Shown here: positions 1-18,410 of the stretch, one piece after another
How positions within the stretch are numbered: the first letter of the stretch is position 1
Layout of the letters: the number at the start of each line of letters is the position of its first letter
DNA from: an uncultured Chloroflexia bacterium
GTDB taxonomy: Bacteria; Chloroflexota; Limnocylindria; Limnocylindrales; CSP1-4
Reading direction: 5' to 3'
DNA length: 64,000 bases
Assembly: GCA_963788685.1 (NCBI GenBank)
Contig: CAWBHP010000012.1
Coordinates: 5,574-69,573 of the forward strand
The notes under the pieces: generated by a model
What the model was told of the DNA's origin: nothing
Seen by the model: only the letters and a program-made list of their open reading frames with translations
Database searches by the model: none
Translations under genes and position numbers: made by a program

Positions 1-1
1 C

Positions 2-409
2 GACGACGCGGGTGAGCTGACCGCGATCGTCTTCGAGCGCGCCCTTCACGCGATCCCGAGGTACCGGCCGGCGGGCGGCGGCTTCGTCGCCTGGCTGATC
101 CGGATCGCACGGAACGCATCCATCGATACCCACCGACGCGCAACCGCGGTCCAATTCGCGGACGACCTCACCGACGCGTCCTCGACGGGCCCGGAGGAGG
201 ACGTCCTGGCCCACGAGGCGCGAGCCTCGCTACTCGCCTCCGTTGGGGATCTGCCGCGGATCCAGCGCGAGGCGATCGTCCTTCGTTACGCGGCTGGACT
301 GACCGCCCGCGAGATCGGCGAGGTCCTCGGCAAGACTGATCAAGCCACCCAGAAGCTGCTTAGCCGCGCGTTGGCTTCGCTCAGGGAGACCTACCGTGAC
401 GACATCTGA
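2..409 (+). CDS. ECF RNA polymerase sigma factor, 5'-partial
   Basis: Manual translation from base 2 gives region 2 (FVAWLIRIARNASIDTHRR) and region 4 (LPRIQREAIVLRYAAGLTAREIGEVLGKT), ending at TGA 407-409; overlaps the next gene. Confidence 0.9.
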   Translation, partial: DDAGELTAIVFERALHAIPRYRPAGGGFVAWLIRIARNASIDTHRRATAVQFADDLTDASSTGPEEDVLAHEARASLLASVGDLPRIQREAIVLRYAAGLTAREIGEVLGKTDQATQKLLSRALASLRETYRDDI

Positions 410-1458: not shown

Positions 1459-1629
1459 TACCGGTCAACGCCGCCCTCGCCTGGGGCTCAGCGCTTTCCG
1501 AACCCTGGGAGGGCCGCGGCCTGCTGCATCCACGACCGCGGGGTGAGTGAGTCGGCGCAACGACGTCGTACCATCGTTCCCACGGCGTTGTACCGGACCG
1601 CCTAACCCAACGTTCAGGAGGTCCAAGAC

Positions 1630-1848
1630 ATGTCCCGCCGAGCAGACCCGCAACGCCTCGACGAGGCCCGCCGAATCGCTACCCGGAATCGCCTCATGGG
1701 TGCGGGGTTGACCGACGCCAGCGCTGACGCCTTGATGGCCGCATGGGAGGCGCGTGAGCCCCGAGAAATGCGCGAGCGCGGCGGGGCGTACTGGGCCGAG
1801 GCGTGGGAGTGGATTGTGGCGGAACGGAACCCGCCGGGTCCCAGATAA
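1630..1848 (+). CDS. Small hypothetical protein (72 aa)
   Basis: AGGAGG RBS upstream of the ATG; Trp-rich helical ORF; no recognised family. Confidence 0.65.
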   Translation: MSRRADPQRLDEARRIATRNRLMGAGLTDASADALMAAWEAREPREMRERGGAYWAEAWEWIVAERNPPGPR

Positions 1849-1956
1849 GTCGCAGCTAATGGGCCGATAAGCCCCAGCGAAGGGGCGCCCTATAGGTTGC
1901 CGAGCGAGTCCGGACGGTCCAGAAGCGGTTCCAGTGATTCGCAGGAGGCCAAGCCC

Positions 1957-2556
1957 ATGCGTCCCAGGTCACGTTTGCGACTCCTCATGGCGGTCGCCAC
2001 CCTTGCATCTGCGTTGGCCTTGCCACCCGCCGCGAGCGCGGCTGATGGCGAGGTGATCCAGTTGGGCACCAACATCTCGGGCGAGGTGTACATCAACAAC
2101 GGTCGTCCTCGGTTCCACTTCGGCAACGTTGGCAACTGCCCCGGCACGCCCCCTCCGGGGGCGAGCTGCTACGTCGAACTCCAGTTCATTCACCGCTGCG
2201 CCGAGCCGTGGTGCTTCTCGGACGAGGTCTCGGGTTGGTTTCGCGTGCCAGCAGGGCAGGACTGGTTCCAGGCACCGATCTGCGCCGACGGAGGCAACCA
2301 CTGGAAGGTGAACTCTCGTCTCCACTGGACGTTCCCGAGCATCCACACGATCGAGATGTGGGGGCAGACCGAGTGGAATGCCGTTGCCGGTACCTACGGG
2401 CTGATCGCCAAGGCGATCTTCGACGTCAGTCTCCAGGTCGGTCTCAGGATCTCGGGGGGAACGAGAATGAACGTCATCACGGCCTCGAATGCTGTATCCA
2501 GTTACGGGCAAATCGCCGAGTCGTTCGGCTACCCGCAGGGTCCGCCTAGCTGCTGA
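1957..2556 (+). CDS. Secreted Cys-containing hypothetical protein
   Basis: AGGAGG RBS before ATG 1957; signal peptide MRPRSRLRLLMAVATLASALALPPAASA; six Cys in the mature part. Confidence 0.7.
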   Translation: MRPRSRLRLLMAVATLASALALPPAASAADGEVIQLGTNISGEVYINNGRPRFHFGNVGNCPGTPPPGASCYVELQFIHRCAEPWCFSDEVSGWFRVPAGQDWFQAPICADGGNHWKVNSRLHWTFPSIHTIEMWGQTEWNAVAGTYGLIAKAIFDVSLQVGLRISGGTRMNVITASNAVSSYGQIAESFGYPQGPPSC

Positions 2557-2640
2557 CCCGTCCACTCGACGGCGCTCCGGCCCGAGAATGGCCGGGGCGC
2601 CGTTCCCCGACACCCACGCAAAAAAGGGAAGGACGAGCAT

Positions 2641-3177
2641 ATGTCTCATCCGCGGCGCAACCACCTCAGTCCGTGGAGTCTCCTCCCGTTTCTATTCCTT
2701 GTCGCGACCGCAGGTTGCGGCCTCGGCCAGGCTCCAGATGCCGAGCCGTCGCCGAGCTACTGCGACGGTGTCAGCACCGAAGTCGGGGGTTGTGACGCGG
2801 ACCGGCCGACCTTCACGGGTCGGACCTGTTCGGAGGTCGCGAAGGAGTTCGGGCTCCAGCTCGATAGGCGCCTCGTCGAGATCCACACGGGGCCCGACTC
2901 GGCAACGGCGAGCAAGGCGGTGCGAGCGGGCCACTACACGAGCGTCGCCGCCAGCCTCGCGAATCTCCAGCTGAGGCGGGCGGGCCAGATCAAGGAATGC
3001 TCGGCGGGCGCGTTCGTTGATGAGGCAGAATCCGTGTTCTCGAGCGAACTACGCGCACACGCAGGTGAACTGCTGCACGATGGCGACCCCGTCACCTACC
3101 TCGCCTGGCGCAAGACGATCGTCGACATGATGTCCATCATCGACATGGAAGAAGACGCTCCGCTGCCCTCGGCATGA
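2641..3177 (+). CDS. Putative lipoprotein
   Basis: Hydrophobic signal with lipobox-like VATAGC; several Cys; clean 178-aa ORF. Confidence 0.7.
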   Translation: MSHPRRNHLSPWSLLPFLFLVATAGCGLGQAPDAEPSPSYCDGVSTEVGGCDADRPTFTGRTCSEVAKEFGLQLDRRLVEIHTGPDSATASKAVRAGHYTSVAASLANLQLRRAGQIKECSAGAFVDEAESVFSSELRAHAGELLHDGDPVTYLAWRKTIVDMMSIIDMEEDAPLPSA

Positions 3178-3279
3178 CGCCGATTGCGAGCGAGTTCTGC
3201 ACGTTCGCCGGGACCTCAGTGGGTGTGCGGCGCCATGAGCACGAGGTACCTGGGCACCCGGGTCCGGACCCGATCTAGC

Positions 3280-3699
3280 TCACGCGTCGGCCGGAAGCAG
3301 GCGGAACGGCCGGTCGTGCGGGCCGCTGATCGCGCGGAAGTGCCGCTCGTCCAGCGTCAAGACGTCGACGGTCTGGTGTCGGCCTGCCAGGACGACGATC
3401 GACGCATCGGCAAGCCCAAGACCGAGATCGGCGAAGCGGTCGAGAACGTCGGTCGCGCGCGAGACATCGTCGGCGTCGAACGGCGCGAGCTCATATGCCC
3501 CATCGGCGACTTCAGCGAGAAACGAGCGAGCGACGTGCGGAGAAACGTGGCGGGCGAGCAGGTAGTCGAGCTCGGCGAGAACAAAGGGCGAGAGGACGCG
3601 AGGACCGCCGGCCTGCTTCAGCGATGCGGCCGCGGCCCGATGGTGCACTTCGGATGCATCGAGGGCCGCGAGGAGCCCGCTCGTATCCAGCAGGATCAC
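3280..3699 (-). CDS. vapC: PIN-domain toxin (VapC family)
   Basis: N-terminal ILLDTS, LAELDY, LGLADASIV and TLDERHF are PIN-domain motifs; overlaps the upstream antitoxin. Confidence 0.92.
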   Translation of the reverse strand: MILLDTSGLLAALDASEVHHRAAAASLKQAGGPRVLSPFVLAELDYLLARHVSPHVARSFLAEVADGAYELAPFDADDVSRATDVLDRFADLGLGLADASIVVLAGRHQTVDVLTLDERHFRAISGPHDRPFRLLPADA

Positions 3700-3917
3700 T
3701 GCTCCCCGAAACCCTCGAGCAGGTCGTCCGCTCGCGTCGCTAGATTGGCCTGCCCGCTCTCGAACAGCGGGATCGTCGGCTCGGCGACTCGATGGCCGGA
3801 TGTCACCGTTTCGACGCCTTCGCGGATGAGCTCCGCCTCGCTCTTCCCGGTCGCACGCGCGGTCGAGGCGAGGGCGCGTCGCTGCGCGGTGGTCAGGTAG
3901 ACGGTGGTCCGTTCCAT
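3696..3917 (-). CDS. vapB: Ribbon-helix-helix antitoxin (VapB/CopG-like)
   Basis: MERTTVYLTTAQRRAL...GKSEAELIREGV is an RHH signature; 4-bp overlap with vapC. Confidence 0.85.
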   Translation of the reverse strand: MERTTVYLTTAQRRALASTARATGKSEAELIREGVETVTSGHRVAEPTIPLFESGQANLATRADDLLEGFGEQ

Positions 3918-4062
3918 GCCATACACCGTACCATACGTTTGGATCGACGACATGGCGCGGACGAACTCAGGGTAGGGGAGGATGATGCTCACCGATCGAC
4001 CGACCGGACGGGCCACGTTCGGCAATGCCACGGAGTGCTACAGGGCTGCGTGAGAACACCAG

Positions 4063-4434
4063 ATGCCTGACGACACACGAATTGATCGCTGGTTATGCGC
4101 GGTTCGCCTTGTCAAGACCCGGCCCATGGCGACCCAGCTGTGTGAAGGCGGGCACGTCCGCGTCAACGGCAACCCGGCCAAGCCATCGACAAAGGTTCGT
4201 GCCGGCGACGTCGTGCATGCCCTGATCGCCGAACGTGAGCGCGTCGTCGAGGTCGTGCGGCCGATCGAAACGCGCGTCGGCGCGCCGGCCGCCGCCACGT
4301 GCTACGTCGACAACAGCCCACCGCCGGTGATCCGAGAGATCGCGCCCGGCATCAAGGCGGTCCGTGGGGAGGGCCGGCCGAGCAAGCGTCTTCGCCGCGA
4401 GCTCGAGCGGATTTGGCGGGATGGACGGGGCTGA
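4063..4434 (+). CDS. hslR: S4-domain RNA-binding protein, Hsp15 family
   Basis: RIDRWLCAVRLVKTR...HVRVNGNPAKPS S4 motif and C-terminal GRPSKRLRRELER typical of Hsp15. Confidence 0.9.
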   Translation: MPDDTRIDRWLCAVRLVKTRPMATQLCEGGHVRVNGNPAKPSTKVRAGDVVHALIAERERVVEVVRPIETRVGAPAAATCYVDNSPPPVIREIAPGIKAVRGEGRPSKRLRRELERIWRDGRG

Positions 4435-5006
4435 TGGCACAGTTGCTCTTCATCCAGGGCGGCGGCGCAGGCACGCACGACGAGTGGGACGACAAGCTGG
4501 TCGACAGCCTGCGGCGGGAGCTCGGGGACGGGTACGAGATCCGGTACCCGCGAATGCCCGCCGAGGACGACCCGAGCGACGCAGCATGGGGTCCAGCCAT
4601 CGCGGAAGCGACTGCCGCCCTCGAGGACGGCGCCGTCGTCGTCGGTCATTCGGTGGGCGGGACGCTCCTCATCCAGGCGCTCGCCGAGCGGCCGCCGGGC
4701 GTGAGACTCGCGGCAATCGTGCTGATCGCTGCGCCGTTCGTGGGCGACGGCGGGTGGCCGGGCGAGGAGTTCGAGCTGCCCGACGACCTCGGCGTGCTCC
4801 TGCCGGCCGGGGTCCCGGTCCACGTGTTCCATGGCCTCGAGGACGACGAGGTCCCGCCTGCGCATGCCGACCTGTACGCGCGCGCGATCCCGCAGGCGCA
4901 GGTGCATCGGCTGCCCGGGCGCGATCACCAGCTGGGTAACGACCTGGGGGAGGTGGCGACGCTGATCCGGACGCTCCAGAAGGCCTCTGGCGGAGAGGAG
5001 GACTAG
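4434..5006 (+). CDS. Alpha/beta hydrolase (RBBP9/YdeN-like)
   Basis: GHSVG nucleophile elbow, HGLEDDEV and a C-terminal His (GRDHQ); start overlaps the hslR stop. Confidence 0.85.
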   Translation: MAQLLFIQGGGAGTHDEWDDKLVDSLRRELGDGYEIRYPRMPAEDDPSDAAWGPAIAEATAALEDGAVVVGHSVGGTLLIQALAERPPGVRLAAIVLIAAPFVGDGGWPGEEFELPDDLGVLLPAGVPVHVFHGLEDDEVPPAHADLYARAIPQAQVHRLPGRDHQLGNDLGEVATLIRTLQKASGGEED

Positions 5007-5040
5007 CGTCAGCTACGGTCAGCGTCTGCTGCTGGAAGGG

Positions 5041-6117
5041 TCAGCCCGATGCCTCCGTAACGTCGCGCGGATCCGTCAATCCGAACTCCGTCGTCAGCCG
5101 AGTCGTCGCGGCCCACGAGCCGCGGTCCTGGTTGCAGAGGACGACGATCGTGGTGGCCGCCGCCAGGTGGTGGGCCACCATCGTCGACACGCCCGGATCG
5201 GCGCCACCGTGGCCGAGGATCGTCACGGCGCCGTTCTCCACGACCAGCTCCAGGCCGTAGCCGTACTGCTCGAGGTCGGCCGACGGAGGCGCCTGTGGCG
5301 ACATCATCGCGGCCAGCAGGGGAGGGGAGAGGAGCCGGCCGCCGAGGAGCGCGTCGATCAGCCGCGCGAGATCCTGCGCCGACGTGATCATCCCGCCGTC
5401 GGGCATCCCCCTGGCGGTGAGGCTGAAGATGTTCGACCGCCAGGTGTCGGGCGGACCGTCGGCGTGCAGGTAGCCGTTCGCGTAGCGCCGCGGGTCCTGG
5501 TCGAGCTCCTCGAACGCCGTGTCGACCATGCCGGCCGGCCGAAGGACCTCGTCGGTCGCCACGTCGTAGAACGACCTGCCAGTCGCCGCCTCGATCACGA
5601 GGCCGGCGAGGATGAAGTTCGCGTCGGCATAGACGTATTTCTCGCCGGGCGGCCGCTGCGCGGGCAGGTCGGCGAAGAGGGGCAGCATGTCAGCCGGCAG
5701 CCGGGCCTTGCTCCCTGGGATCCGATCCAGAGCCCCGACGAACGAGTCCCACGTCTGGGCCGCGTCGTCGTGGTAGTTCGGCAGCCCCGAGGTATGCGAC
5801 AGGAGATGGTGGAGCGTGTGCTCGGGAGTCATGGCCTTGGTCCGGTGCTCCGCCGGCAGGACCTCGATCAGCGGCTGGTCGAGTCGGAGCTCCCCGCGAT
5901 CGACAAGCCTGAGCGCGGTCGTCGCGGTGACCATCTTGGTGACCGAGGCGACCCCGAAGCGGGTCTCGCTCGTGATCGGGACCTGGTGGCCTCGGTGCGC
6001 AATGCCGCCGGCGTACTCGAAGAGGGGAGCGCCGGCGGTCCAGACGAGGGCCACGCCGCTGAATTCGTGCGTTTCGACCCGGTGATCGAACCATGAGCGC
6101 AGGGCATCGGGGTCCAT
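5041..6117 (-). CDS. Serine hydrolase, beta-lactamase class C / DD-peptidase family
   Basis: ASVTK (SxxK), LLSHTSG, Y-x-x-x-N region and GHGG motifs. Confidence 0.88.
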   Translation of the reverse strand: MDPDALRSWFDHRVETHEFSGVALVWTAGAPLFEYAGGIAHRGHQVPITSETRFGVASVTKMVTATTALRLVDRGELRLDQPLIEVLPAEHRTKAMTPEHTLHHLLSHTSGLPNYHDDAAQTWDSFVGALDRIPGSKARLPADMLPLFADLPAQRPPGEKYVYADANFILAGLVIEAATGRSFYDVATDEVLRPAGMVDTAFEELDQDPRRYANGYLHADGPPDTWRSNIFSLTARGMPDGGMITSAQDLARLIDALLGGRLLSPPLLAAMMSPQAPPSADLEQYGYGLELVVENGAVTILGHGGADPGVSTMVAHHLAAATTIVVLCNQDRGSWAATTRLTTEFGLTDPRDVTEASG

Positions 6118-6140
6118 CGAGGCATTGTGACGCTCATCGG

Positions 6141-6368
6141 GCGCCGGTGCTTCCTCAGATGATCTGCGCCGGCGGCTGACACGGAGACGAGGGCGCCGCG
6201 ACCCGGGTGATGGCGGCGCTCGATGAAGCCCAGGTCGGTCGCGTCCTCCCAGACCGGCAGGCGCGGGCACGACGTCCGCCACGCCTCCATCGTCTCCAGG
6301 TACGGGCGCTCGCCCGGGCCGATCCACTCGAGGAGGTCGAGGATCAGGTTGTCGACGGTCTCGGACAT
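6141..6368 (-). CDS. Small hypothetical protein (MSETVDNLILDLLEWIG...WRTSCPRLPVWEDA); end uncertain
   Basis: Recognisable small conserved-hypothetical sequence embedded in ORF 5868..6764. No stop separates it from the upstream OGG-like gene, and its frame runs on into the hydrolase. Confidence 0.55.
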
Positions 6369-7263
6369 GGGGTCGCGGGGTCCCGCCCATTGGCCGCCTC
6401 GTGCGTCGGCCATCGATTGGAAGATCAGGTACTCGAGAGCCTCCGGCGACAGTTCGAGCGCGTGGGCCCCGGCGTGCATCTGCTGGAGATAGCCCTCGTA
6501 GATCGGCAGCGACCAGGATGCCGTGGCGAGGTCAGGTCGGCCATTCGTCGCCAGCCACGAACTCACCATTTCATCGTGGATGAGGGCCGACGGACGGGCG
6601 CCGACGGGCTGGCAGAAGGCGATGAACTTCATGCCGAACGCGGGCCCGAGTCCCTTGACACGGCAGTCCTTCGCCAAGCGGCCGTAAGCCGCCGCCGCGC
6701 CCTCGTCGCGCACGGATGTCGCGACAGCGAGGAGATGCGCTCGAGTCGTGGGGAGGGCGATCATCTTCGCCGTGAACGGGGAGGGGCCGTAGCCGACCCA
6801 AGCGAATCCCAGGTCATAGTCGCGATCGAAGGCAGCAGAGCTGACCTCTTCGCCGCGGCGGAACGGGCCGCGATGCGACAGGACGAATGCGCGACGAGAC
6901 GGGCCAGCTGCGATCAGCTTCGATGCTGGGAAACGCGTTCATCCAGCGGTCGCACGGCCAGGCGATGGCGATCTGGTCGGGCCGACCCGTGGTGATCCAG
7001 TGGCGGACCAGATCCTCGAGGGCCCGAGGAGGCGGGATGAGGCCTCCTACGCGGGCGAGACGCCCCTTCAGCAGGGGAGCGCGGGGCCGTCCAGTCCGCT
7101 TACTGTCTGATGCTCGAGGAGGTCGGTCGCCCGAGAGCCAGTCCACGAAACGTCTCGCGTCGCCAACGTAGGTGCTGATCGTGCCCGGGGTTCGCCCCGC
7201 GGCGACCAGTTGGTCCTCGTATTCGATCAGTGCTTGGTCCAGCTCGTCCTTCGTCCAAGTCAC
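6369..7263 (-). pseudogene. OGG-fold (8-oxoguanine glycosylase-like) protein with an N-terminal integrase-SAM-like domain, frameshifted
   Basis: N-terminus TWTKDELDQALIEYEDQLVAAGRTPGTISTYVGDARRFVDWL. After frame changes near 6900-6810 it reads (MTW)GFAWVGYGPS then KGLGPAFGMKFIAF...ALIHDEMV, an HhH-like OGG-fold pattern. Confidence 0.55.
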
Positions 7264-7546
7264 CGCGATCCGCCCAATCTGCGCAGGTCCGCCAGGATGG
7301 CCTCGATGTAGTCGAGTCGCGCGACGCCTCATTGACCTCGCCGCGTCCCGCGCGATCAAGAAGCGGGACGCTCAGCTCGAAGTCGGCCTTCGTCAAGTTT
7401 CGCGGTCGACCGGTCGACTCGGGGATGACCCGAAGCGTGTTACCAAGAGCGACAGCAGTGAAACCGGCCTTTCGGGACCTTGTGTGGAGGCGGGTCGAGG
7501 TCCGATAACGGCTGAGGACATCCGACCACGACGGCTGCAGAGTCAT
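7260..7546 (-). CDS. Hypothetical protein, one frameshift near 7315
   Basis: MTLQPSWSDVLSRY...EVNEASR then YIEAILADLRRLGGSR* in a shifted frame; ATGA and GTGA overlaps with both neighbours. Confidence 0.5.
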
Positions 7547-7762
7547 CGCAGGCGGTACTGGCCGCGCCGACTCGTTTAGGAATCGCTTGCTCGGCGGATA
7601 GGTCGAAGACGATTCCCGGGGTTGTGAGGTCGGCCATCTGGACCGTAATGTCTACCCGCCGCCCGGAAAGCGGGCCTCAACCCAAACCTTGACCTCCCGA
7701 GCTCCAGGCTCGCCGCCAAGAGCTTCCATTGCCTCGCGGATCGCCTCTGCTGCAGTCGTCAT
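7543..7762 (-). pseudogene. Small helical / wHTH-like hypothetical protein, disrupted
   Basis: Manual translation MTTAAEAIREAMEALGGEPGAREVKVWVEARFPG...DITVQMADLTTPGN...TYPPSKRFL.RVGRGQYRLR*, needing frame corrections. Confidence 0.45.
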
Positions 7763-7777
7763 CTCGTCTCCGCGTAG

Positions 7778-8701
7778 TTATCCGAGGAATACCGTGTCTG
7801 CGTGCCACTCGAGCAAGTCGCTCGATGGCGACAGTATCTGCGCGACGGGTGTTCGAATCTCCTGTCCATCAAGCGCTTAGTAGTCGCGGCCGTTCTCAAA
7901 CTCGGCGTGGATCCGCTTGCTTACTCGGACCCGCCATCCGGTGTGACAGTTACGTAGCCACGATCGAACAGCGTGTGAAGGTCCGATCGCAGAAGTAGCC
8001 CGTTGGAGACCTCATGTGGCCCCGCCTGGCCGTATGGCCGTATTGGCTGCTTCAAGCACCGGGAGCGTCCGCTCATTCGTAACGACGCAGCGGCGTTCGT
8101 ACGCGTCGGTGACCATCACCCTGAACGCGCCCTGACCCAGGCGCGGCCGCACCAGACTGGGCGCTCCGTAAGCGGGAGTGGGAACGTCTGATACACCGGG
8201 AAAGGGCGGCGGCCGCATCGCAGCGAGGGCGAATGAAATGCGCTCCCAAAGGACCTGACCTTCTCCGACCGCTAAATCGTAGGACTTACCGCGTGTGAGG
8301 TTCGAAGCCCAGTCTGACGGCGGTTAAATCCAGAGCTCTTCCGGAAGGAAGAAGGGTTCGACAAGGACCGTCGATCCTATCAACGTTAGGTCCGGATCAA
8401 TCTGACGCTCGCTGTATCCCTTGATGCGGTTGACGAACTCGAAGTAGGTAGCCGTCCCATTGTTCTCGCCGAACGTTTCCCAAGCGAACCTCGGCGTGAC
8501 CGTCGTGTGATGAGCAAAGAATCCGCCACCGACAATCCAGCCGCCGCTTCGAACGTGGAACTTAAGGAGCCAAGGGCTGCCAAGCGGCAAGGAGATCGCC
8601 GGCCTCTTGTCGGGCGCCCAGAAATTCACTTCCTCCAGCGGTGCGCGCGACGCGAGGAACTGGAACCACTCGCGGTCCGTGTTTGCGACCCAATACCGCA
8701 C
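7778..8701 (-). pseudogene. HNH endonuclease (putative type IV modification-dependent restriction enzyme), disrupted
   Basis: N-terminus MRYWVANTDREWF...EEVNFWAP; C-terminus RLGQGAFRVMVTDAYERRCVVT...LEAA..PY...HEVSNGLLLRSDLHTLFDRGYVTV...LEWHADTVFLG*. In-frame TAA at 8324-8326 and near 7878, plus a frameshift near 8050. Confidence 0.85.
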
Positions 8702-8781
8702 GAGGGCAGTCTAACGAGCGCAAACACCCATCGCGTACACTCCCAATTGAATCGCCGGGCAATCACAGCCGGGGAGGGAAC

Positions 8782-8946
8782 ATGAGCCGCCGCCGAGGCC
8801 GATCGGGCCGACCGGCAGGCCGTAACAAGCTGATCGAGATCGTTGTTACGCTGGCGTTCCTCGCCCTGCTGATCGCGGTGATCCTGCCTTGGGCCGGACA
8901 GGGTCTTGCTGCAGGGTTCGGCAGCATCATCGAACAGTCACGCTGA
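8782..8946 (+). CDS. Small single-TM protein (54 aa)
   Basis: GGGAGG RBS; basic N-terminus then hydrophobic helix IVVTLAFLALLIAVILPW; 13 bp upstream of the DUF2075 gene. Confidence 0.55.
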   Translation: MSRRRGRSGRPAGRNKLIEIVVTLAFLALLIAVILPWAGQGLAAGFGSIIEQSR

Positions 8947-8959
8947 ACGGCAGCGGACC

Positions 8960-10996
8960 GTGCACCTCTACCAGGGGACCAGCCAGCAGTTCATCGCCGA
9001 TGCGACGCAGGCGCGGCTCGCGAACCAGGTCGCTGAGCGCTTCTTTCACGAATTCCGGTACAAGCCCGGGCCGTCCGAGGTCAGGTCGTGGCAGAACTCC
9101 CTTGGCGCGATGGCGAATGTCCTCCAGCTGGCCGATCTCCGCGACCAGGGGATCCTCGTCGAGCTCAAGCTGCCGCTCTCGTCGAAGCGCCTGGATGTCC
9201 TGATCACGGGGCAGAACCCAACAACCGGCGACGCGGCCGTCGTCGTTGAGCTCAAGCAATGGACCCAGGTCGGCCGATCCAACATCACCGACTGCGTCAC
9301 GATCGAGATGGGCGGCCGCGAGCGGGACCACCTCCACCCGTCGCGCCAGGTCGCCCAATACCAGCGCTACCTGCTCGACACCCACCCGGCGTTCACCGAG
9401 GGCGGCGTCTCGCTCGACGCGTGCGCGTACCTCCACTACGCGACCCACGACCCGTCGTCGCCGCTCTATGGCAAGGACTTCGCGGCACTCCTGGCGACGA
9501 ACCCATCGTTCTCGGGCGACGAGACGGACCAGCTCGCGACCTACCTCGACGATCGCGTCGCCGGCCCGGACGAGGGCGGTGCCATCCTCGATCGGGTCGC
9601 CAACTCGGCCTTCCGCCCGCACAAGCGCCTGCTCGACCACGTCGCGCGAGTCATCCGCAACGAGCCGGTCTTCACGCTCCTCGACGAACAGCAGGTCGCC
9701 TACAACGCGATCATGGATTCGGTCCGATCGGCCGGCCAGAACCAACACAAGGTCGCGTTCATCGTCGCCGGCGGGCCCGGGACCGGGAAGTCGGTCCTCG
9801 CGGTCAACCTCGTCGCGGAACTCGCGTCGCTCGGACTCAGGACGATCCACGTCACCGGCTCGAAGGCGTTCACCGAGAACCTGCGCAAGATCGTCGGCGG
9901 CCGGGCGAGCGTCTTGTTCAAGTACTTCCGCGACACCGCGACCGTCGACGAGCCGATGGACGTCGTCATCCTCGACGAGGCCCACCGGATCCGATCGGTC
10001 AGCACGAGCCGCTTCACGCCGGCGACGGCGCGCACGGGCAAGACCCAGATGGAGGACATCCTCGACTCGACGCGGGTGTCGGTGTTCTTCATCGACGACC
10101 TCCAGGTCGTCCGACCCGGCGAGACCGGCAGCACCGATTCGATCCGCGAGGAGGCCGCCAAGCGCGGCCTCGAGGTCCGCGAGTTCGAGCTCGAGGCGCA
10201 GTTCCGATCGAACGGCTCGGACTCGTTCATCCGCTGGATCGACAACACGCTCGAACTCGATCGGACGCCGCAGGTCCTCTGGCCGATGGACGACGACTTC
10301 GACTTCCGGATCGTCGGCAACGTCCGCGAGCTCGACCAGATGATCCGCGCCAAGGCAGGGGAGGGGGCCACCGCCCGACTCGTCGCCGGCTTCTGCTGGC
10401 CGTGGTCCGACCCCGACGACGTCGGCGAGCTCGTCCCGGACGTCAGGGTAGGGGACTGGTCGATGCCCTGGAACGCGAAGTCGGACGCGCGGAAGCTCGG
10501 GCCCGGGATCCCGAAGTCGGACTTCTGGGCGAGCGCGAAGGAGGGGATCGACCAGGTCGGCTGCGTCTACACCGCGCAGGGCTTCGAGTTCGACTACGTC
10601 GGCGTGATCTTCGGCCCCGACCTCGTCTACCGGCCGATGGATGGGGGATGGGTCGGCCAGCGCGACCAGTCGCACGACCGCGTCGTCCGCAGCGGCGTCA
10701 CCGAGCAGCAGTTCACCGACTTCGTCAAGAGCACCTACCGCGTCCTGCTGACCCGCGGCCTCCGCGGCTGCTACGTCTACTTCATGGACGCGCCAACGCG
10801 GGACTTCTTCCTGAGCCGAATAGAGCGCGCAGCCCCCCGGAACCGGTTAGTCCCGAACACGAGCAACCGTACGGATCGTGAGTCGGCTCGACATCGGCGA
10901 CCTTGCCGACACAGCGCTCCTGAAAGCCGTCTGGAAGCGCCGCTTGCGTCGGCGCCTCAAAACAACTCGATTTCGGGACATGGAGCTAGCCCGTGA
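8960..10996 (+). CDS. DUF2075 (Schlafen group 3-like) PD-(D/E)xK nuclease-helicase fusion
   Basis: N-terminal E..KRLD...VVELKQW nuclease motif, Walker A GGPGTGKS, Walker B VILDEAHR, late motifs YTAQGFEFDY and YRVLLTRG; GTG start at 8960. The true stop may be near 10850. Confidence 0.88.
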   Translation: MHLYQGTSQQFIADATQARLANQVAERFFHEFRYKPGPSEVRSWQNSLGAMANVLQLADLRDQGILVELKLPLSSKRLDVLITGQNPTTGDAAVVVELKQWTQVGRSNITDCVTIEMGGRERDHLHPSRQVAQYQRYLLDTHPAFTEGGVSLDACAYLHYATHDPSSPLYGKDFAALLATNPSFSGDETDQLATYLDDRVAGPDEGGAILDRVANSAFRPHKRLLDHVARVIRNEPVFTLLDEQQVAYNAIMDSVRSAGQNQHKVAFIVAGGPGTGKSVLAVNLVAELASLGLRTIHVTGSKAFTENLRKIVGGRASVLFKYFRDTATVDEPMDVVILDEAHRIRSVSTSRFTPATARTGKTQMEDILDSTRVSVFFIDDLQVVRPGETGSTDSIREEAAKRGLEVREFELEAQFRSNGSDSFIRWIDNTLELDRTPQVLWPMDDDFDFRIVGNVRELDQMIRAKAGEGATARLVAGFCWPWSDPDDVGELVPDVRVGDWSMPWNAKSDARKLGPGIPKSDFWASAKEGIDQVGCVYTAQGFEFDYVGVIFGPDLVYRPMDGGWVGQRDQSHDRVVRSGVTEQQFTDFVKSTYRVLLTRGLRGCYVYFMDAPTRDFFLSRIERAAPRNRLVPNTSNRTDRESARHRRPCRHSAPESRLEAPLASAPQNNSISGHGASP

Positions 10997-12690
10997 CCCA
11001 CTCGAGTACCTAGGCCTTGAACGGGTACTCAATTCAGCGATCGAGGACCTCGTCCAGCAATTGCGTGATGGGTCCTACCGCCCACGGGCTCCAGAGTGGA
11101 TCCGGACGGCCAAGCGGGTGGGCCTAACTCGTCCACTGGCGTTTCTTTCGCCTCGAGATCAATTGGTCTTCAAGACGATCGTTGCATTGGCCGAGAATGA
11201 CCTACTCCTTGGAAGTCCCAAATGGACCCGACTTGGGCGCGCCGACCCCGGGAACGAGGACGACGACACCACGCTAGCTGAGAGTGGTTGGTTTCGATCT
11301 TGGCTCCGCCGCCAGGGCCAGCTTTGGGTCATCGACGAAACGTACGACTGGCTAGTCGAAAGCGATGTATCGAACTTCTTTCCATCAGTTCAGATCCAGG
11401 ATGTCTGCGCGTTCGTCCAGGACAACTCTCGCCTTGGAAATCGGTCTCATTCGCCTCCTTGAATACATGCTTCAGACGTTCTCCCCAATGGCCGCCTACC
11501 GCCCCTCTCGAGTAGGAGGATTACCGCAGGAGGGTTTTGACGTCAGCCGCGTGTTGGCGCACCTCTACCTTCGTCCATTGGACGAAGAGTTCGACTCCGA
11601 GGGTCAGGACGGGCGATACACGCGATGGGTAGACGACATCGCTGTGGGCGCAGATACGTGGGACGAGGCGCTCCGCATTGTCCAACGAATTCAATCGACG
11701 CTCGAAGGAATCGGCCTGTACCCGAACTCCGCTAAGACCCGCATCATTTCAGGTGGCGTATTCAGCCGCGAATACATGAAGTCCGAGAACGATTGGCTTG
11801 GAGAATTTGAAGACACCATCAAGTCCGGTGTACCGGACATCCCGGAATTTGGACGCCGGCTGCGGCGCCACCTCGAACGAGAGGATCGCCCTCGAGCATG
11901 GCCGCGGGTTCTGAGGAGGTACTACACGTATTCCCGACGCCTCAGGCATCCCTACCTTCTTGAAAAGTGGCCCAGCCATATTGATGATTCGCCAGACTCT
12001 GCTCGTTCGATGTTCGACTATCTCGCCACGTACCGCCTAACCGCGGCTCGGTTCAACCGCCTACTTGTCGTGCTCGATCGTTTCGGAACGGTCTACGAGG
12101 ACATTGAAATCCTCGCGCATGAGTACCTTGCGCTCGCTCCGTCGGTCGACTCGGTCCGGATCAACGGGCTGATTGCGGACTGGGCCTACGGGATCGTCGA
12201 ACGCGAGGCCGTACCCAGGCCGAGGATCGCCGCGGCGGCTTGCGTCACGCTCGGAAAGTTCGCAGATGGCCCTCGCCTGGATCAGCTCGCCCGGCTGTAT
12301 GGCAGGTGGAAGCGCGATACCGTTCTTAGAACTCAAACTGCAACGATCCTTCTAGCGGCCGGGCGAATTGATATGGCAGAGGTAACCCGCCTTCTCGGCC
12401 GATCGCAACTCGAGACCATCGAGAATCTTGAGTTCCTCATTGCCGTCGCCGGCGGCGAAAAGCAAGCCGTAGGCATGGCGCTGTCCGCCATGGAACCGGT
12501 CAAGAAGTACGGCCCGGATCGGGTCATGACCAAGCCGCGACTTATGTTCCTTGCGCCGTTGCTTAGAGCATCCGCACCTAGCCAATGGACAGCTATTTCT
12601 GGCCGATGGAAGAGGTCGCTTGGATCTAACCCGGACGGGCTTCGCGACCATGTTGCTGAGCGATGGTTATTCGGAGATTGGCCCTCGTGA
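10878..12690 (+). CDS. Reverse transcriptase of the UG/Abi (defence-associated) type with a helical C-terminal domain; one frameshift near 11440
   Basis: ORFs 10878..11462 and 11365..12690 join to about 600 aa with RT motifs KRVGLTRPL, SDVSNFFPSV (motif A), GLPQEGFDVSRVLAHLYL (motif B), YTRWVDD (motif C) and GLYPNSAKT; no intron maturase or HNH domain; about 300-aa helical tail. Confidence 0.88.
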
Positions 12691-12727
12691 CGCTTCAATG
12701 CGTGCGGCGATGGTTAGGGTGGGGAAG

Positions 12728-13918
12728 ATGGACCTAGAGGAGGCGCTCGAGCAGTTCGATCTCACCGCGGCGAACCTGTCGCGGTTAGAGGAGGTCTGGT
12801 CGGAGCTGGAGGGCCTAATCCCGACCGGAATCGCGTTCCTTGACGCCGGTCCGGAAGGGCGTCGCTATCGAGAGTTGACACGAGCCTATAGCGAGATCGC
12901 AAGCGCACTGCCTGCAATCTCAGGCTACCGAGTTGAGGTGACTCCGATGGAACTCAACGCGATCGGCCATGCCCGGCTTGACGCGGCGGAGCTAGGAGAG
13001 CCGTGGATCGAAGTGTCTCTAGAAGAGGACATTTACGGCCCGTCGAAGGCGATCGAGGAGTACCGCTTCCGGTTTGAGCGCGCCCGTCGCGATCTTGTGC
13101 GTGACCACGTGTCACGACTGTCCTCCGAGGTCGCCCAACACCTCGCGGAGTTGGCTGACGCCTACCCCTCGGATGGGATAAAGATTGAAGACCCTCGTAT
13201 CGCAAGCGTGAGGGGGGCGATTCGCCAAGTCGAGCGCCTTGCGGGCGACCAGGTCCCACGGACCAAGGCGTGGTCTGATCTCCTCCGGCACCTCGGATTC
13301 CACGAGGGCCAGGACATTCACGCCATGGCAACGGTCGATTGGCCAAGCGTGAGTGCTGACCTCGCGAGGGCGCTCTACACGGAGCTTGAGCCGCTACCCG
13401 TTGCCACCAGAGACCTTGATGACGTGCTTCGATCGAAGCCCCAAGGAAGCGTCTCGATCGACCTGCAATGGGCTGATCTCTCTCCTGACGACTTTGAGCG
13501 CGTCATCTTCAACCTCATCAGTGCGGCGGATGACTATGAGAACGCCCAGTGGTTGACGCCAACGAATGCCCCCGATCGCGGGCGTGACCTCGCGGCCGAG
13601 CACGTGCGGAGCGACACGCTCAGCGGCCCATCGCGCGAGCGCGTAATCGTGCAGGCACGCCACTGGTTGCAGAAGTCGGTCGGGCTTCCTCAAGTTCGAC
13701 AGCTCCTTGATCAGATGAAGTTATGGGAGCCTCCTCCCGTGCACACGCTGGTCATCGCGACCAGCGGACGGTTCACGACAGATGCCGTCTCGTGGATCGA
13801 GCGACACAACAATGCCGATGACCGACCGGTAATTGTCATGTGGCCGAACAGTCACCTAGAGACCTTGGTCGCGAGACGCCCTGAGCTGTCGGCGCTGTTC
13901 CCGCGTCGCAACCGGTAG
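12728..13918 (+). CDS. Mrr-like (Mrr_cat) restriction endonuclease with a long helical N-terminal domain
   Basis: C-terminal WADLSPDDFERVIFNL...PDRGRDL...IVQARHW...LVIATSGRFTTDA...MWPNSHLE matches the Mrr catalytic domain layout. Confidence 0.85.
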   Translation: MDLEEALEQFDLTAANLSRLEEVWSELEGLIPTGIAFLDAGPEGRRYRELTRAYSEIASALPAISGYRVEVTPMELNAIGHARLDAAELGEPWIEVSLEEDIYGPSKAIEEYRFRFERARRDLVRDHVSRLSSEVAQHLAELADAYPSDGIKIEDPRIASVRGAIRQVERLAGDQVPRTKAWSDLLRHLGFHEGQDIHAMATVDWPSVSADLARALYTELEPLPVATRDLDDVLRSKPQGSVSIDLQWADLSPDDFERVIFNLISAADDYENAQWLTPTNAPDRGRDLAAEHVRSDTLSGPSRERVIVQARHWLQKSVGLPQVRQLLDQMKLWEPPPVHTLVIATSGRFTTDAVSWIERHNNADDRPVIVMWPNSHLETLVARRPELSALFPRRNR

Positions 13919-13925
13919 CCCGGCG

Positions 13926-13955
13926 GGCAGACGCAACTAACGGGCATCCGGTAGC
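13926..13955 (-). repeat. Highly degenerate copy of the dif-like site
   Basis: GGCAGACGCAACTAACG-GGCATCCGGTAGC aligns with 14064-14094 at 24 of 31 positions with one gap. Confidence 0.45.
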
Positions 13956-14063
13956 CGTGGACCGGCCTCGTCGAGCCAGCATCCAATCGCAGGATCCGTC
14001 CGCTGGGAAGGCTTCGACGGCCGGGCCCGACAGACCTTGAGGCACATCCACTCACGTGTGCGT

Positions 14064-14094
14064 GGCAGACATAACTCACGCGGCAACCGGAAGT
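14064..14094 (-). repeat. Degenerate dif-like (Xer) site: XerD-type arm and spacer kept, XerC-type arm altered
   Basis: GGCAGACATAA CTCACG CGGCAACCGGAAGT versus TGCAGACATAA CTCACC TTATCGGAAGT at 15134. Confidence 0.65.
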
Positions 14095-14114
14095 AGGCGG
14101 CCAGAACGACTGAT

Positions 14115-14266
14115 GCCCGCACGTGCTGCGGGGACAGCAGCCCACGCCGGTCGTCCGGTCGTCCGAGAGACCGCGCCCGGCATCAAAGGCCGTCCGTGGC
14201 GAGGGCCGGCCGCGCAAGCGTCTTCGCAGCGAACTCAAGCGAATGTCTCGAGCGCGAGCGGGCTGA
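14115..14266 (+). pseudogene. Degenerate second copy of the 3' end of hslR
   Basis: Aligns with about 4290-4434 (CGCGCCCGGCATCAA, GAGGGCCGGCCG.GCAAGCGTCTTCGC, same GGCTGA stop); has an 8-bp internal duplication and a 1-bp insertion. Confidence 0.8.
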
Positions 14267-14342
14267 TGCTGATCGGTCGTGCCGAAGTCCCGCCTGAGAG
14301 TGCCGCGTGCCAAGGCCGGGAGCGCTGTGTATCGTGCACCGC

Positions 14343-15040
14343 GTGCCAGATCAGAAGCAGGCCACGCTGAATTGAGAGGGCGTTGTCCGTGCTGTCATCG
14401 CGTTCGTGGCGTTTGTGTTTGGTGTCTGGGCCTACGACCTAGTCGGGCCGATTGCAGGGACGCTCTCGCCGCTCATTCAGGCCGCGATCGTGACCGCGAT
14501 CGGGGCGACGGTGGCCGCTCTCGCGGCCCGGTATGCCGTCGTCAAAGCGTCGCAGCTCGCCGCCGCCGAGTCCCGCGAGGACCGACAACAAGCGCGCGAA
14601 GATCATTCGCGGACCGGGTGGCTAAGGTCGCGGCGAGACTGATGAATGCGGGCTTCGACCTCGCCGCGGCCGTGCAAGGGCACCTGGCCGATTGGCGGGA
14701 TGGGGAGCCCCACCTGACCGAAGTGCCTTCGATGGAAACCATCCGCCGCCTGGTGTTCGAACTTCGAATGATCGTTCGCACTGAGCGCACGTACCAAGCC
14801 GTCGTCGCCTACTCGCAGATGCTGTACGACGTTGCTGAATTCGACCACGATGCGGACGCCGGGCCGTCGCTCGACAAACCACGGCATGACGCCGTCCGGC
14901 TCGTGCGCGCGGTCTGGGAGCTGATCCGGGCCCGAAATGGATTCGCGGACCAGTTGAAGCGCAAGCCGTATCCCGCTGACATCGACGCGCGATGGGAAAT
15001 GACAACGGATCGTCTCCAGGAGGGCCCTAGTCGAGCTAGA
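14343..15040 (+). pseudogene. Membrane-anchored hypothetical protein, disrupted
   Basis: GTG start, in-frame TGA near 14373, two TM helices (VIAFVAFVFGVWAY; LIQAAIVTAIGATVAAL), a frameshift near 14610, then a helical domain in ORF 14279..15163; end uncertain. Confidence 0.45.
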
Positions 15041-15133
15041 GGACGCCGTGCGCGCCGAAACCAACCGGTCCAGGCTGCCGCGCGACCAGGCCGACTAGCC
15101 GAGAACGGCCCAAACGGGTCCACAGTTCGGCAT

Positions 15134-15161
15134 TGCAGACATAACTCACCTTATCGGAAGT
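15134..15161 (-). other. dif-like XerCD recombination site (candidate chromosome dimer-resolution site)
   Basis: The minus strand reads ACTTCCGATAA GGTGAG TTATGTCTGCA: 11-6-11 layout with ATAA/TTAT inner ends. The left arm resembles Bacillus dif ACTTCC...AA and the right arm starts with the conserved TTATGT. Confidence 0.75.
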
Positions 15162-15245
15162 GATATCGCAAGGGTGAGATAGCTGGAAACGCCCCGGTGC
15201 GCATGACGCGCTGTAACGAGCCCGCCCCGGATGCGTCTCCAGGTC

Positions 15246-16181
15246 ATGCGTCCTCGATCCGCGATCTCGATCCTGATCCTGATCTCCGTCGTCGCCCTCG
15301 GAGCGTGCGCGAGCCCGGCCCAGGGCGACATCGAGCGCGGCCAGGAGCTGCTCGGCGCGAACAAGCGTGAGGAAGCCTTCGCCGCGTTCGACGCCGCCGT
15401 CGCTCTCGACCCCCAGAACGCTGTCGCATTCGCCGGGCGTGGCTGCTCCAGGCCCTTGCCGGACACAGTGGCGGCGATCTCCGACCTGGACCGGGCAATC
15501 CAACTCGACCCGACGAGTGCCGACGCCTATCGCTGTCGTGCAGAAGCGCACCGTGCTGCCGGGGACCGCGTGGCCGCGCTCGCGGACGCGCGGCAGGCTC
15601 TCGACCTCGGACCATCCCATGCATACACGCACGTCACGCTCGGGAATGTCCTCGACGACCTGGGTCGAACGGCCGAGGCCATCGTGGAATACGACAAGGC
15701 GATCGAGCTCGAACCGACGCTGGCCAACGTCTACAACCAGCGAAGCATCGCCCGCAACCGACTCGGTGACGAAGCCGGCGCCGCGGCCGATGTCGACAAG
15801 GCGATCGAGCTCGATCCCGACTATGGCCCGGCGTACGCCGTCCGAGCGATGTCGTCGGTCTTCGACGGCGACTGCACGAGTGCGCTCGCAGATGCCGAGA
15901 AGGCGATCGCGCTCGATCCCGAGTTCCCGAGCGGGTACGGCGCTCGCGCCATCTGTCGGAGCGAGGCGGGCGACCTGGACGGAGCGCTGGCCGACGCGGA
16001 CCAGGCGATTGCCCTTGGCCGGATCGACGCCTTCGCCTACTTGGTTCGCGGCGTGGTCCGGGCCGACCGCGGCGACGAGGACGAGGCCCGCGCCGACCTC
16101 CTCCGTGCGATCGACCTGGCACCGACAGCCGAGTTTGTCGCCGAGGTCCGCACGATGATGGCCGAGTACGGCCTCGACTGA
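15246..16181 (+). CDS. TPR-repeat lipoprotein
   Basis: Lipobox ALGAC; many TPR units (A..D...AI.LDP...AY..R). Confidence 0.9.
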   Translation: MRPRSAISILILISVVALGACASPAQGDIERGQELLGANKREEAFAAFDAAVALDPQNAVAFAGRGCSRPLPDTVAAISDLDRAIQLDPTSADAYRCRAEAHRAAGDRVAALADARQALDLGPSHAYTHVTLGNVLDDLGRTAEAIVEYDKAIELEPTLANVYNQRSIARNRLGDEAGAAADVDKAIELDPDYGPAYAVRAMSSVFDGDCTSALADAEKAIALDPEFPSGYGARAICRSEAGDLDGALADADQAIALGRIDAFAYLVRGVVRADRGDEDEARADLLRAIDLAPTAEFVAEVRTMMAEYGLD

Positions 16182-16355
16182 CGGCGGGCCGCGCGCCCTG
16201 GGAGGCCCTTCCGTCCCGCGCCGTGACACCGGCGAGACAGCCGGGACTAGACTGGCCTCGATAGGGCGCTGAGCGCGCCCGGGGGAGCCCCGGCGCCAAG
16301 GGGAAGGCGCCCGCGCATGCGGCGGCCAGCCGCATCCGGGCCGGGAGGGACACGG

Positions 16356-17795
16356 ATGAAACGGCTCCTCGCGCTCATCGCGTCGCTCGTGCTCGTCGCG
16401 GCCCTGCCCGCCGCGGCGTCGGCCGGGCGGGTGACCAGGTTCACCGACCACAACGTCAACATGTTCTGCGAGGGCATATCGGCCACCAGCGGAGGCGGCT
16501 TCGCGTTCTTCTCGGCCAGCGTGTCGGACCAGTTCGGGAGCGACGCCTTCATCGACTTCTGGTCGAGCGGCGAGCCGTCCGGCCCACCGGACCTGTTCCG
16601 TGATCCGGACCAGGCGGCCGTCGTCACCTGGAACGGCAGCGTCCTGTCAGGCTCGATCCCGCTCGTGAACGGCAGCGGCGGCGCGGCCGGCTCGGCGACG
16701 TTCTCGGCGACGCTCACGCCCTGCGGGCGATCCGTTTCCGTTCGACGACCGCTTCCGCGACGGCAACACGTGGCACCACTTCACCGGCGTCAGCCAGCCG
16801 ATGCAGACGAGCGGCACGCTGTCGGTCGGTGGTTCGACGTTCTCGCTCGAAGGGTGCTTCGCGGACGAGACGACGGTCACGGTGTTCGAGACGAACCCCC
16901 GCTCGTTCGTCGGCCACTTCTCGAACCGCGACGTCGGCTGCGACCTGACGAACGCCAGCGGCGACACGGGCTTCCTGTTCACGAGCCTCGAAGAGGGCGA
17001 GGTGTTCATCGATTCGGGCGCGTTCCCAGCGAACGGCGCGGTCGGCACCGGGCGCCGTCGGCAGCGCGACGCTCAGCAACGGCGTCCTCGACGCGACGCT
17101 TGAGACCTACAACATCGAAACGGGCGAGCCCCTCCCCGGCATCGCGACGATCCATCTCGAGATCGTGGGTTCGGGCGAGCCGTTCGAGTACCTGCTCAAG
17201 TACGCGACCGGCCGCGAGGTCGCGCAGGGCGTGATCCTCGACCTCGAGGGCACCCTCACGATCGGGGCGATCCACGTTCGATCTCGGCGACTGCTTCGGG
17301 GTCGACGGCCGAACGAAGGTCATCGATACGTTCCCGAGCGGGCCGAAGCCCGGCGGCAAGGTCCCCGCGAACGACCTGCCCGGCGGGGCGAAGCTCCTGA
17401 CCGTCGGCTCGAAGACGTCGGTCGCGACGAAGGGCGCGTCACCCGATCGCGAGGCGCCGTACGAGTGCCTCACCCTCGAAGAAGATGGTGGTGTCTTCGA
17501 GGTTCCCGTCGGTAGCACGGTCTGGTACAGGATCGTGGGGACCGGCGGTCCGATCACGGTCGATACGGCCGGCAGCGACTACGACACCGTCATCGCCGTC
17601 TACACATCCAACGGCTCGGGCGGCTTCACGCCGGTGCCGGGGGCGTGCCTCGACGATGTGCCGATCCAGCCGATCGGCCGCACGCTCCAGGCCGCCGTAA
17701 CCTGGAATTCGCTCGCCGGGACGACCTACTACGTCCAGATCGGCGGCTATCCACAGTCCTTCACGTACGGCAACCTGCGGGTGGCGGTTCGCTGA
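16356..17795 (+). CDS. Secreted beta-rich hypothetical protein with a C-terminal PPC-like domain; several frameshifts
   Basis: Signal peptide MKRLLALIASLVLVAALPAAASA; ORF pieces 16317.., 16801.., 17165.., 17535.. are contiguous; C-terminal TAGSDYDTVIAVY...AGTTYYVQIGG. Confidence 0.6.
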
Positions 17796-17884
17796 CGGAA
17801 ACCGCACCTCCGGACGGAGACGTATAAGGGGATGTCGGCCGAGAGCCTGCCGGCATCCCCTGCTCCACAGAGAGGTTTTGCATC

Positions 17885-18410
17885 ATGAGCTCCAGACTCC
17901 TGATGGTCGCAACGATCGTCGTCGCCGGCATGGCGGTGGCGGCTTGCAGTAGCCCGGGCGCTTCGACGGCGTCCCTCGCGGCTCCGACGACGCGCCGCGT
18001 CCCAGGCCCCGCCGTCGGTCGCCGCGTCCGAGGCACCACCGTCGGTCGCCGCGTCGCAGCCCGCCGCGGCCGCGACCGTCGAGGCCACGGAGGTCGGCAG
18101 CCTCGGCACCGTCCTCGTTGCCGGATCGAACGACATGACGGTCTACATCTTCACGAGCGACGTGAAGGACAGCGGCAAGAGCGCCTGCAGCGGTGGCTGC
18201 ATCACGAAGTGGCCGGCGCTGACCGTGGCGGCCGGCGAGACGCCGACGGCCGGACCGGGCGTGACCGGCACGCTCGACACGATCACCCGGGAGGACGACG
18301 GCACGCTCCAGGTGACCTACAACGGCCTGCCGCTCTACTTCTACGAAGACGACGCGGCGCCCGGCGACGCCAACGGCGTCTACACCGGCTGGGAGGCTGT
18401 CAAGCCCTGA
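17885..18410 (+). CDS. COG4315 / Lipoprotein_15 secreted repeat lipoprotein; frameshift near 17990
   Basis: Lipobox AVAAC; motifs MTVYIFTSD...CSGGCITKWP and QVTYNGLPLYFY..D..PGD.NG. Confidence 0.85.

Follow-up and report, generated by a model that had tools for sequence, protein, structure and literature searches.

Can dif, the recombination site at the terminus of a bacterial chromosome, take in small groups of genes which carry no recombinase of their own? This question is raised by a 64,000-nt stretch of DNA from an uncultured Chloroflexota bacterium, referred to here as the window (C12:5574-69573 of a 3.36-Mb assembly of 16 contigs with ~70% G+C, from a genome ~64% complete), in which an intact dif is preceded by two dif-like sites. 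The host recombinases XerC and XerD (XerCD) resolve chromosome dimers at the terminus dif under the guidance of FtsK and the FtsK orienting polar sequence (KOPS) words, and a preliminary description of the window had proposed that repeated Xer-type insertions next to dif may have built up the defence genes of this region. Following comparison with related genomes, all of them metagenome-assembled genomes (MAGs) whose records are labelled uncultured Chloroflexia or Candidatus Limnocylindrales, we favour a narrower reading, to which we give a probability of roughly 60%. Small, non-autonomous, integrase-free cassettes, similar to the integrative mobile elements that exploit Xer (IMEXs), would have entered at dif through the action of host XerCD, with stacking to a limited extent.

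Three dif-like sites at a chromosome terminus

The three sites of the preliminary description, here named A, B and C, were all confirmed in the window sequence on the + strand. Site C (15134-15161, conserved block 15136-15161) reads TGCAGACATAA-CTCACC-TTATCGGAAGT. Site B (14064-14094) reads GGCAGACATAACTCACGCGGCAACCGGAAGT, or GGCAGACATAA-CTCACGCGG-CAACCGGAAGT when split into arms and spacer, and site A (13926-13956) reads GGCAGACGCAACTAACGGGCATCCGGTAGCC. Common to B and C are the 15-mer GCAGACATAACTCAC, without mismatch, and a terminal CGGAAGT, with three extra bases between these two elements in B. Allowing up to three mismatches, the 15-mer matched three times in the window where 0.61 matches were expected, and with up to two mismatches no further copy was found anywhere in the 3.36-Mb assembly. 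A two-arm scan, which scored a 13-nt left arm and a 7-nt right arm to a maximum of 20, gave 20/20 for both B and C and 15/20 for A. Only B and C reached ≥17/20 genome-wide, while 32 matches on both strands reached ≥15/20; the probability of a chance same-strand match of ≥15/20 within 300 nt of B, which applies to A, was ~0.003. The 15-mer and two-arm genome scans agreed with the expectation that the motif would be confined to this locus. A fourth candidate at window position 3270 (24/32 to B) was rejected, being the conserved 3' terminus of a PIN gene on the minus strand which has the same form in relatives.

Site C is the chromosome dif of this Limnocylindria-type Chloroflexota. The preliminary description had taken it for the terminus site, and this was borne out by its copy number, conservation, strand and GGGNAGGG polarity and by its distance from dnaA. 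The site is single-copy in the genome of the window, and among 25 MAGs of the same genus (58-92% complete) exactly one copy with ≤3 mismatches was found in 10 and two copies in none. The exact 19-mer core of dif was present in one copy each in at least 107 Chloroflexota loci, and the 107 loci carrying it, among the matches listed, were used as the dif-locus set. In the 104 loci with alignable flank a 26-nt block from CAG to AAGT was conserved, with the flanks beyond it at the random background level. The conserved block, CAGACATAA-CTCACC-TTATCGGAAGT, has the 11-6-11 architecture of a dif site with ATAA and TTAT as inner arms. Twelve matches to the 19-mer core outside the Chloroflexota (Bacteroidota-type records, among the matches listed) lay within a conserved coding region and were discarded as unrelated. 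Also set aside was a single MAG, MFD05442.bin.2.302, with two perfect-dif contigs (L039 and L068), which look like two binned organisms and not like an IMEX; their right flanks are similar, their left flanks match at only 66%, and in one contig a 2.2-kb gene for a membrane protein is inserted right of dif.

The position of dif at the terminus was evident in G004, a related genome in which, over 400 kb, 80% of coding was on the + strand left of dif and 84% on the - strand right of it, with the cumulative coding-strand switch ≤10 kb from dif. GC skew was flat across the 400 kb around dif in this genome. The word GGGNAGGG is the KOPS word of E. coli, and its polarity converged on dif, with counts in the two orientations of 27:4 to the left and 7:23 to the right in G004 (C6 594470-994469) and of 9:0 and 0:10, respectively, in window 1-64000. 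GGGGAGGG was its most skewed form, and GGGNAGGG is a KOPS-like word for this lineage. On the complete 4,153,430-bp chromosome OY969796.1 there is one dif at 2,367,709 and dnaA lies at 172,751, which places them 52.8% of the circle apart.

The genome encodes two Xer-like tyrosine recombinases, both on contig C1, for which the best NCBIfam models are XerD and XerC; neither reaches its equivalog cut-off, and one exceeds the subfamily cut-off. An FtsK_gamma domain is encoded on contig C11. The window holds neither the Xer-like recombinases nor the FtsK gamma domain, and the statement that it encodes no integrase or transposase stands in so far as the only tyrosine recombinases are those on C1 and the open reading frames (ORFs) of window 1-16200 have no transposase or recombinase domain.

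A variant dif site and the cassettes beside dif

The preliminary description had treated site B as a degenerate copy of dif. B is a dif-like junction which keeps one arm and the adjoining spacer of dif, but on sequence comparison it is a member of a distinct, recurring class, here called alt-dif or alt, and not a randomly decayed dif. Sites of this class keep the left arm and the outer right arm of dif, have a spacer 2-3 nt longer, and carry GCAAC in the inner right arm where dif reads TTAT. In the 11-nt reading the right arm is CAACCGGAAGT in alt and TTATCGGAAGT in dif, with a spacer of 8-9 bp in alt versus 6 bp in dif, of which the first 4-5 bp beside the conserved arm are those of dif. Nine aligned alt sites share CAGACATAAC..CCGGAAGTAG with a spacer of 8-9 nt.

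Among the 107 Chloroflexota dif loci five secondary sites were seen, each sharing the strand of dif and lying at a distance of 0.55-1.07 kb from it, on one side or the other. A sixth secondary match, on the opposite strand, was chance-like, and a reversed-pattern control gave one match. The architecture of B was found beside dif in five genomes (G208, G006, G071, L131 and L139). The site reads CAGACATAACTCAG-ATCGCAAC-CGGAAGTAG in G006 and at the first alt site of G208 (alt1), ...CTTAG-ACGGCAAC-CAGAAGTAG in L131, ...CTCAG-TTCCAGC-CGGAAGTAC in L139, ...TCGTTCGTGAC-CGG(A/G)(A/C)GTAG at the other two alt sites of G208 (alt2a and alt2b) and CCGACATAACAGAGCGGGCAATCGGAAGT in G071. Sites of this class are sporadic. 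In the genus 3 of 43 genomes had the exact alt pattern, and in the family 4 of 401 had it with three mismatches allowed; no match away from dif was found in either set. The contig names of three carriers (G006, L131 and L139) indicate short-read k-mer assemblers, and the extra spacer bases are therefore not long-read artefacts.

A looser form of the pattern matched 10 short contigs of the JGI metagenomes, mostly with AT-rich flanks and none with a dif nearby; one of them, L155, is GC-rich and alt-like. On these contigs (L149-L158) the motif takes the form GACATAACTCA-N(5-10)-CCGGAAGT with various spacer lengths, and the arms GACATAACTCA and CCGGAAGT may be common to dif or dif-like sites of other lineages.

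Each alt-dif pair brackets one small cassette of 0.55-1.07 kb, mostly of toxin-antitoxin (TA) type, with two kinds of VapBC and one TacAT in the five other genomes. In G208 the order is alt1, VapB/PIN, dif, 190 nt, alt2a, MazE-like/PIN and alt2b, so that four sites lie within 2 kb, in agreement with the earlier suggestion of serial sites. G006 has dif, VapB/PIN and alt; G071, which belongs to another genus, has dif, MazE-like/PIN and alt; L139 has dif, TacA/GNAT and alt; and L131 has alt, an unknown 169-aa ORF and dif. In the window site A is followed by 107 nt, site B, an S4/hslR-like 3' fragment together with an orphan gene for a hydrophobic protein, and dif. The cassettes encode TA pairs or unknown ORFs and no recombinase, and none is large enough to hold one. 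Relative to the polarity of the sites all cassette genes point one way, whichever side of dif they are on, which fits a circle with a single site.

Two of the cassettes were found in more than one genome. The VapB/PIN cassettes of G208 (alt-cassette-dif) and G006 (dif-cassette-alt) are 91.3% identical and collinear with the positions of alt and dif swapped, compared with 79-85% identity for the core genes of these two genomes and 71-74% for the adjacent flank. Between G208 and G071, which belong to two genera, identity is 89.6% for the MazE/PIN cassette and 79-83% for core genes. Recurrence of the two cassettes above core identity suggests that they are mobile. The cassette turnover which the preliminary description had proposed to look for in relatives was found exactly at such sites.

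In the window the cassette body between B and dif (14095-15133, +) contains the 3' third of an S4/hslR-like gene followed by the orphan gene, and has a G+C fraction of 0.664 versus 0.694 for the core. The S4/hslR-like fragment (~14114-14263, +) aligns to window 4290-4434 and to the hslR copies of relatives. Its full-length paralog is an intact S4-domain gene at 4063-4434 (+; Pfam S4, E = 1.2e-15), the sole full hslR-like copy in the genome. Most members of the genus have an hslR-like gene near dif, in one or two copies and often duplicated, and G004 has two intact copies. The orphan gene (~14376-15097, +, possibly to 15160) has a frame which runs into dif, and the hydrophobic N-terminus of its product is probably membrane-spanning. 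No Pfam family was matched by the orphan protein, and its single match among 5.8 billion proteins was in L180 (ENA ERZ25039576 contig_101142), a second assembly from a strain 96% identical to that of the window.

The L180 assembly also bears on the state of these genes. Window 4511-16212 and L180 differ over 11.7 kb by 336 substitutions and by gaps at 111 positions, and different genes are broken in each, the helicase of the neighbouring defence genes being split in L180 and the orphan gene in the window. Three single-G indels separate the two assemblies within 13900-15200, between B and C. The frameshifts in this region of the window may be assembly errors, and because of the indel differences between the two assemblies pseudogene calls in the window are unreliable without polishing. 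In L180 the orphan gene, earlier described as a disrupted membrane protein, is called as an open gene of 224 aa, and the description of the stretch between B and C as holding only decayed genes is doubtful.

Sites A, B and C are unchanged in L180. Site A had been described as a more decayed copy of the same motif, and its 24/31 identity to B was reproduced, but only with one 1-nt gap allowed. It differs by ATAA to GCAA and CGGAAGT to CGGTAGC and aligns with the alt class. A is a weaker, decayed relic of an alt-type site. The A-B spacer (13957-14063, 107 nt) has no ORF, showed no homology in comparisons with relatives and is possibly the remnant of an older cassette. A resemblance between the left flank of B and the left flank of dif in G005, the closest relative, was too short to count.

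Proposed insertion at dif, competing explanations and flanking genes

In the mechanism which we propose, B would be the junction site of a small cassette, and the alt site would be the attachment site of the element itself. A circular cassette with one alt site would recombine with dif through host XerCD. The left arm (plus CTCA) and CGGAAGT are common to alt and dif, which differ only in the segment that these enclose. Exchange left of this heterologous segment, on the side of the conserved arm, would yield the order alt-cassette-dif, as in the window, the first cassette of G208 and L131, and exchange to its right would yield dif-cassette-alt, as in G006, G071, L139 and the second cassette of G208. 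Both arrangements were observed, and both were observed for one cassette. Since the spacers differ, a single strand-pair exchange is likely, with replication finishing the event as in the CTX/TLC-type IMEXs. The regeneration of dif after each event means that a further cassette can enter. Site A with its 107-nt spacer would then be what remains of an earlier cassette, and site A and the four-site cluster of G208 are both consistent with limited stacking. The TA cargo would make an insert less prone to loss through Xer. The circular intermediate, the catalysis by Xer and the choice of exchange point are what we infer from the arrangement of the sites.

Several observations weigh against insertion by host XerCD. 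The alt pattern is carried by six genomes only, all MAGs, and the exact pattern had no match in the JGI metagenomes or IMG/VR, so that no vehicle or free form was seen there. No close relative with the same flanks minus the cassette was found, and for most of the turnover next to dif in relatives no alt site can be recognised. Selection instead of transfer could be part of the reason for the higher identity of the recurring cassettes. In G208 the same 33 nt follow the right arm both at dif and at alt2b, which gives a 40-nt direct repeat of right arm plus flank (30957-30997 and 32030-32069 of the oriented 60-kb join) on either side of the 1.07-kb insert, and this duplication points to extended homology or to a history more complex than clean site-specific exchange. 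The S4 fragment right of B parallels the dif-hslR order of G005, where there is a decayed hslR copy left of dif and an intact copy directly right of it, with no alt site detected right of this dif-hslR pair. Clean integration at dif would put hslR right of C, and the element would thus have carried an hslR copy or a later rearrangement would have taken place.

A recombinase other than Xer could have acted in trans, for example the integrase of a helper phage or plasmid which targets a dif-like sequence, so that the alt sites would mimic dif without any use of Xer. The link to a Xer event is indirect, the inner right arm of alt lacks the TTAT which canonical Xer arms keep, and in a genome only 64% complete a helper could be absent from the assembly. 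We consider this unlikely, since the only tyrosine recombinases of the genome are the two Xer-like ones, alt keeps both outer arms of dif exactly, as known Xer-exploiting elements do, and the insertions are always at dif itself.

Local duplication and decay would dispense with a mobile element altogether, B and A being drifted remnants of duplications of dif and the adjacent hslR. It would accommodate the hslR fragment ~20-50 nt after B, together with the intact hslR ~70 nt right of dif in G005, and the 40-nt duplication of right arm plus flank in G208. Six genomes whose cargo is unrelated could not, however, arrive at the same alternative right half (GCAAC-CGGAAGTAG plus 2-3 additional bases) by independent decay, and the cassettes, which have no relation to the flanks of dif, are found in different genera at an identity above that of core genes. 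We therefore hold this explanation to be quite improbable.

A third possibility starts from the hslR repeat, in that 14115-14266 is a direct-repeat copy of 4290-4434 with the stop codon included. A classical integrase would then have placed the 10-kb stretch 4434-14115 as an island in the 3' end of hslR, with the fragment as its displaced attR and the dif-like sites as incidental. This is very unlikely. The repeats are only ~78% identical over ~150 nt and no integrase lies in between. Full second hslR copies in relatives make the fragment more simply a decayed paralog, and the pairing of hslR with a downstream hydrolase is conserved in G005, which indicates that nothing was inserted right after hslR. 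Chance resemblance or an assembly artefact, which the many single-base indels relative to the sister assembly and the weak 15/20 score of A might suggest, is given next to no weight and is effectively refuted for B and C, as A, B and C are identical in the independent assembly, the controls were near zero, and the 3-nt-longer spacer also occurs in the short-read-assembler contigs of G006, L131 and L139.

Insertion by host XerCD, if it took place, accounts for a small part of the region only. Left of the sites lies a defence island (8906-13918, +) with an SLFN-group-3 helicase, a reverse transcriptase-like (RT-like) gene and an Mrr-type nuclease, as assigned by Pfam, which the preliminary description had suggested was built by Xer insertions. 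This was not upheld. No site bounding the island was found, as none scored ≥14/20 on the + strand of window 1-30000 besides 3270, A, B and C, and the stretches bracketed by sites amount to only ~1 kb between B and C and the 107-nt remnant between A and B. In G018, G005, G208 and L139 the helicase is likewise found to the left of dif, as is the RT-like gene in G005, and much of the island is therefore inherited neighbourhood. The Mrr gene was not seen in these four genomes; its stop codon lies 8 nt before the start of A, and it could at most be an old cassette which has lost its left site. The RT-like gene of the window (10878-12690) is read as two overlapping ORFs, 10878-11462 and 11365-12690, which may be one gene given the indel rate of the assembly.

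Right of dif, a TPR-repeat gene (15231-16181, +; Pfam TPR families) occupies the variable position that separates dif from the conserved right flank, the latter beginning at ~16225. The gene is missing from the five relatives compared, in which synteny resumes at 16225-18100, and no alt site was found at its right end. To the left of dif, G005, G004 and G011 share a conserved PIN-domain gene (window 3280-3951, -), which in L139 lies directly right of the dif-TacAT-alt unit. Gene order around dif has therefore been reshuffled between genomes with the orientation to dif kept.

Relation to known Xer-dependent elements

The attP of TLC-phi and difGGI combine a conserved XerC arm and spacer with a divergent XerD arm, and the TLC-phi-type IMEXs and the gonococcal island lie at dif in direct repeat, have no recombinase of their own and regenerate dif, with arrays possible (PMC5357621). 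The inserts in the window and the five other genomes resemble them in being located at dif, in the direct repeat of dif and a dif-like site, in the absence of an element-encoded recombinase, in their variable presence and in the sharing of elements across genomes. They differ in being single-operon inserts of 0.55-1.07 kb rather than phages or a 57-kb island, in a spacer of 8-9 bp instead of 6, and in a divergent arm whose outer half is that of dif. The inserts described here are also found on either side of dif, have no XafT-like activator and belong to the phylum Chloroflexota.

On the Rep_3 plasmids of Acinetobacter, pdif modules are bounded by 28-bp Xer-type sites and include a 768-bp TA module, 'add' (PMC6449649). 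Both these modules and the cassettes beside dif have one or two genes, often of TA type, without a recombinase, and recur in different contexts. The Acinetobacter sites are inverse, on plasmids and with 6-bp spacers, whereas those found here are direct, same-strand chromosomal sites, one of which is dif itself; the arrangement of inverse pdif sites on a plasmid was not what we observed. With integron cassettes the inserts share a fixed platform site, small cassettes in one orientation with a site of their own, and common TA cargo. Unlike integrons they have no IntI and no folded imperfect palindrome of the attC type, number only one or two, and use dif as the platform. An integron is excluded because the genome has no IntI and only two Xer-like tyrosine recombinases, neither of them in the window.

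What is known of Xer-exploiting elements comes mostly from a small number of Proteobacteria (Vibrio phages, the gonococcal island, Enterobacter) and from plasmids of Acinetobacter, and a literature search found no report of such cassettes in Chloroflexota. The present cassettes would extend the same principle to an uncultured lineage of soil and freshwater Chloroflexota in a minimal form, one operon and one variant site, where the variant site has a defined grammar and the outcomes of insertion are seen on both sides of dif. The analysis also provides a dif consensus and a KOPS-like polarity word for this lineage.

A broader reading, which we put forward only tentatively and consider rather doubtful, is that the terminus dif of Limnocylindria-type Chloroflexota serves as an integrase-free platform for gene capture, at which circles with an alt site enter on either side through XerC-first or XerD-first single-strand exchange, are held in place by their TA genes and are passed between genera. 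If true, such a platform would be the chromosomal, direct-repeat counterpart of integron cassettes and of the Acinetobacter dif modules. If insertion at dif by host XerCD is confirmed, the alt and dif pairs would offer natural substrates for learning in what way the length of the spacer and the sequence of the arms influence whether exchange is XerC-first or XerD-first, and the alt pattern would offer a simple sequence signature by which such cassettes can be recognised in metagenomes. It would also mean that in these organisms TA genes, and possibly defence genes, gather at the chromosome terminus without an integrase.

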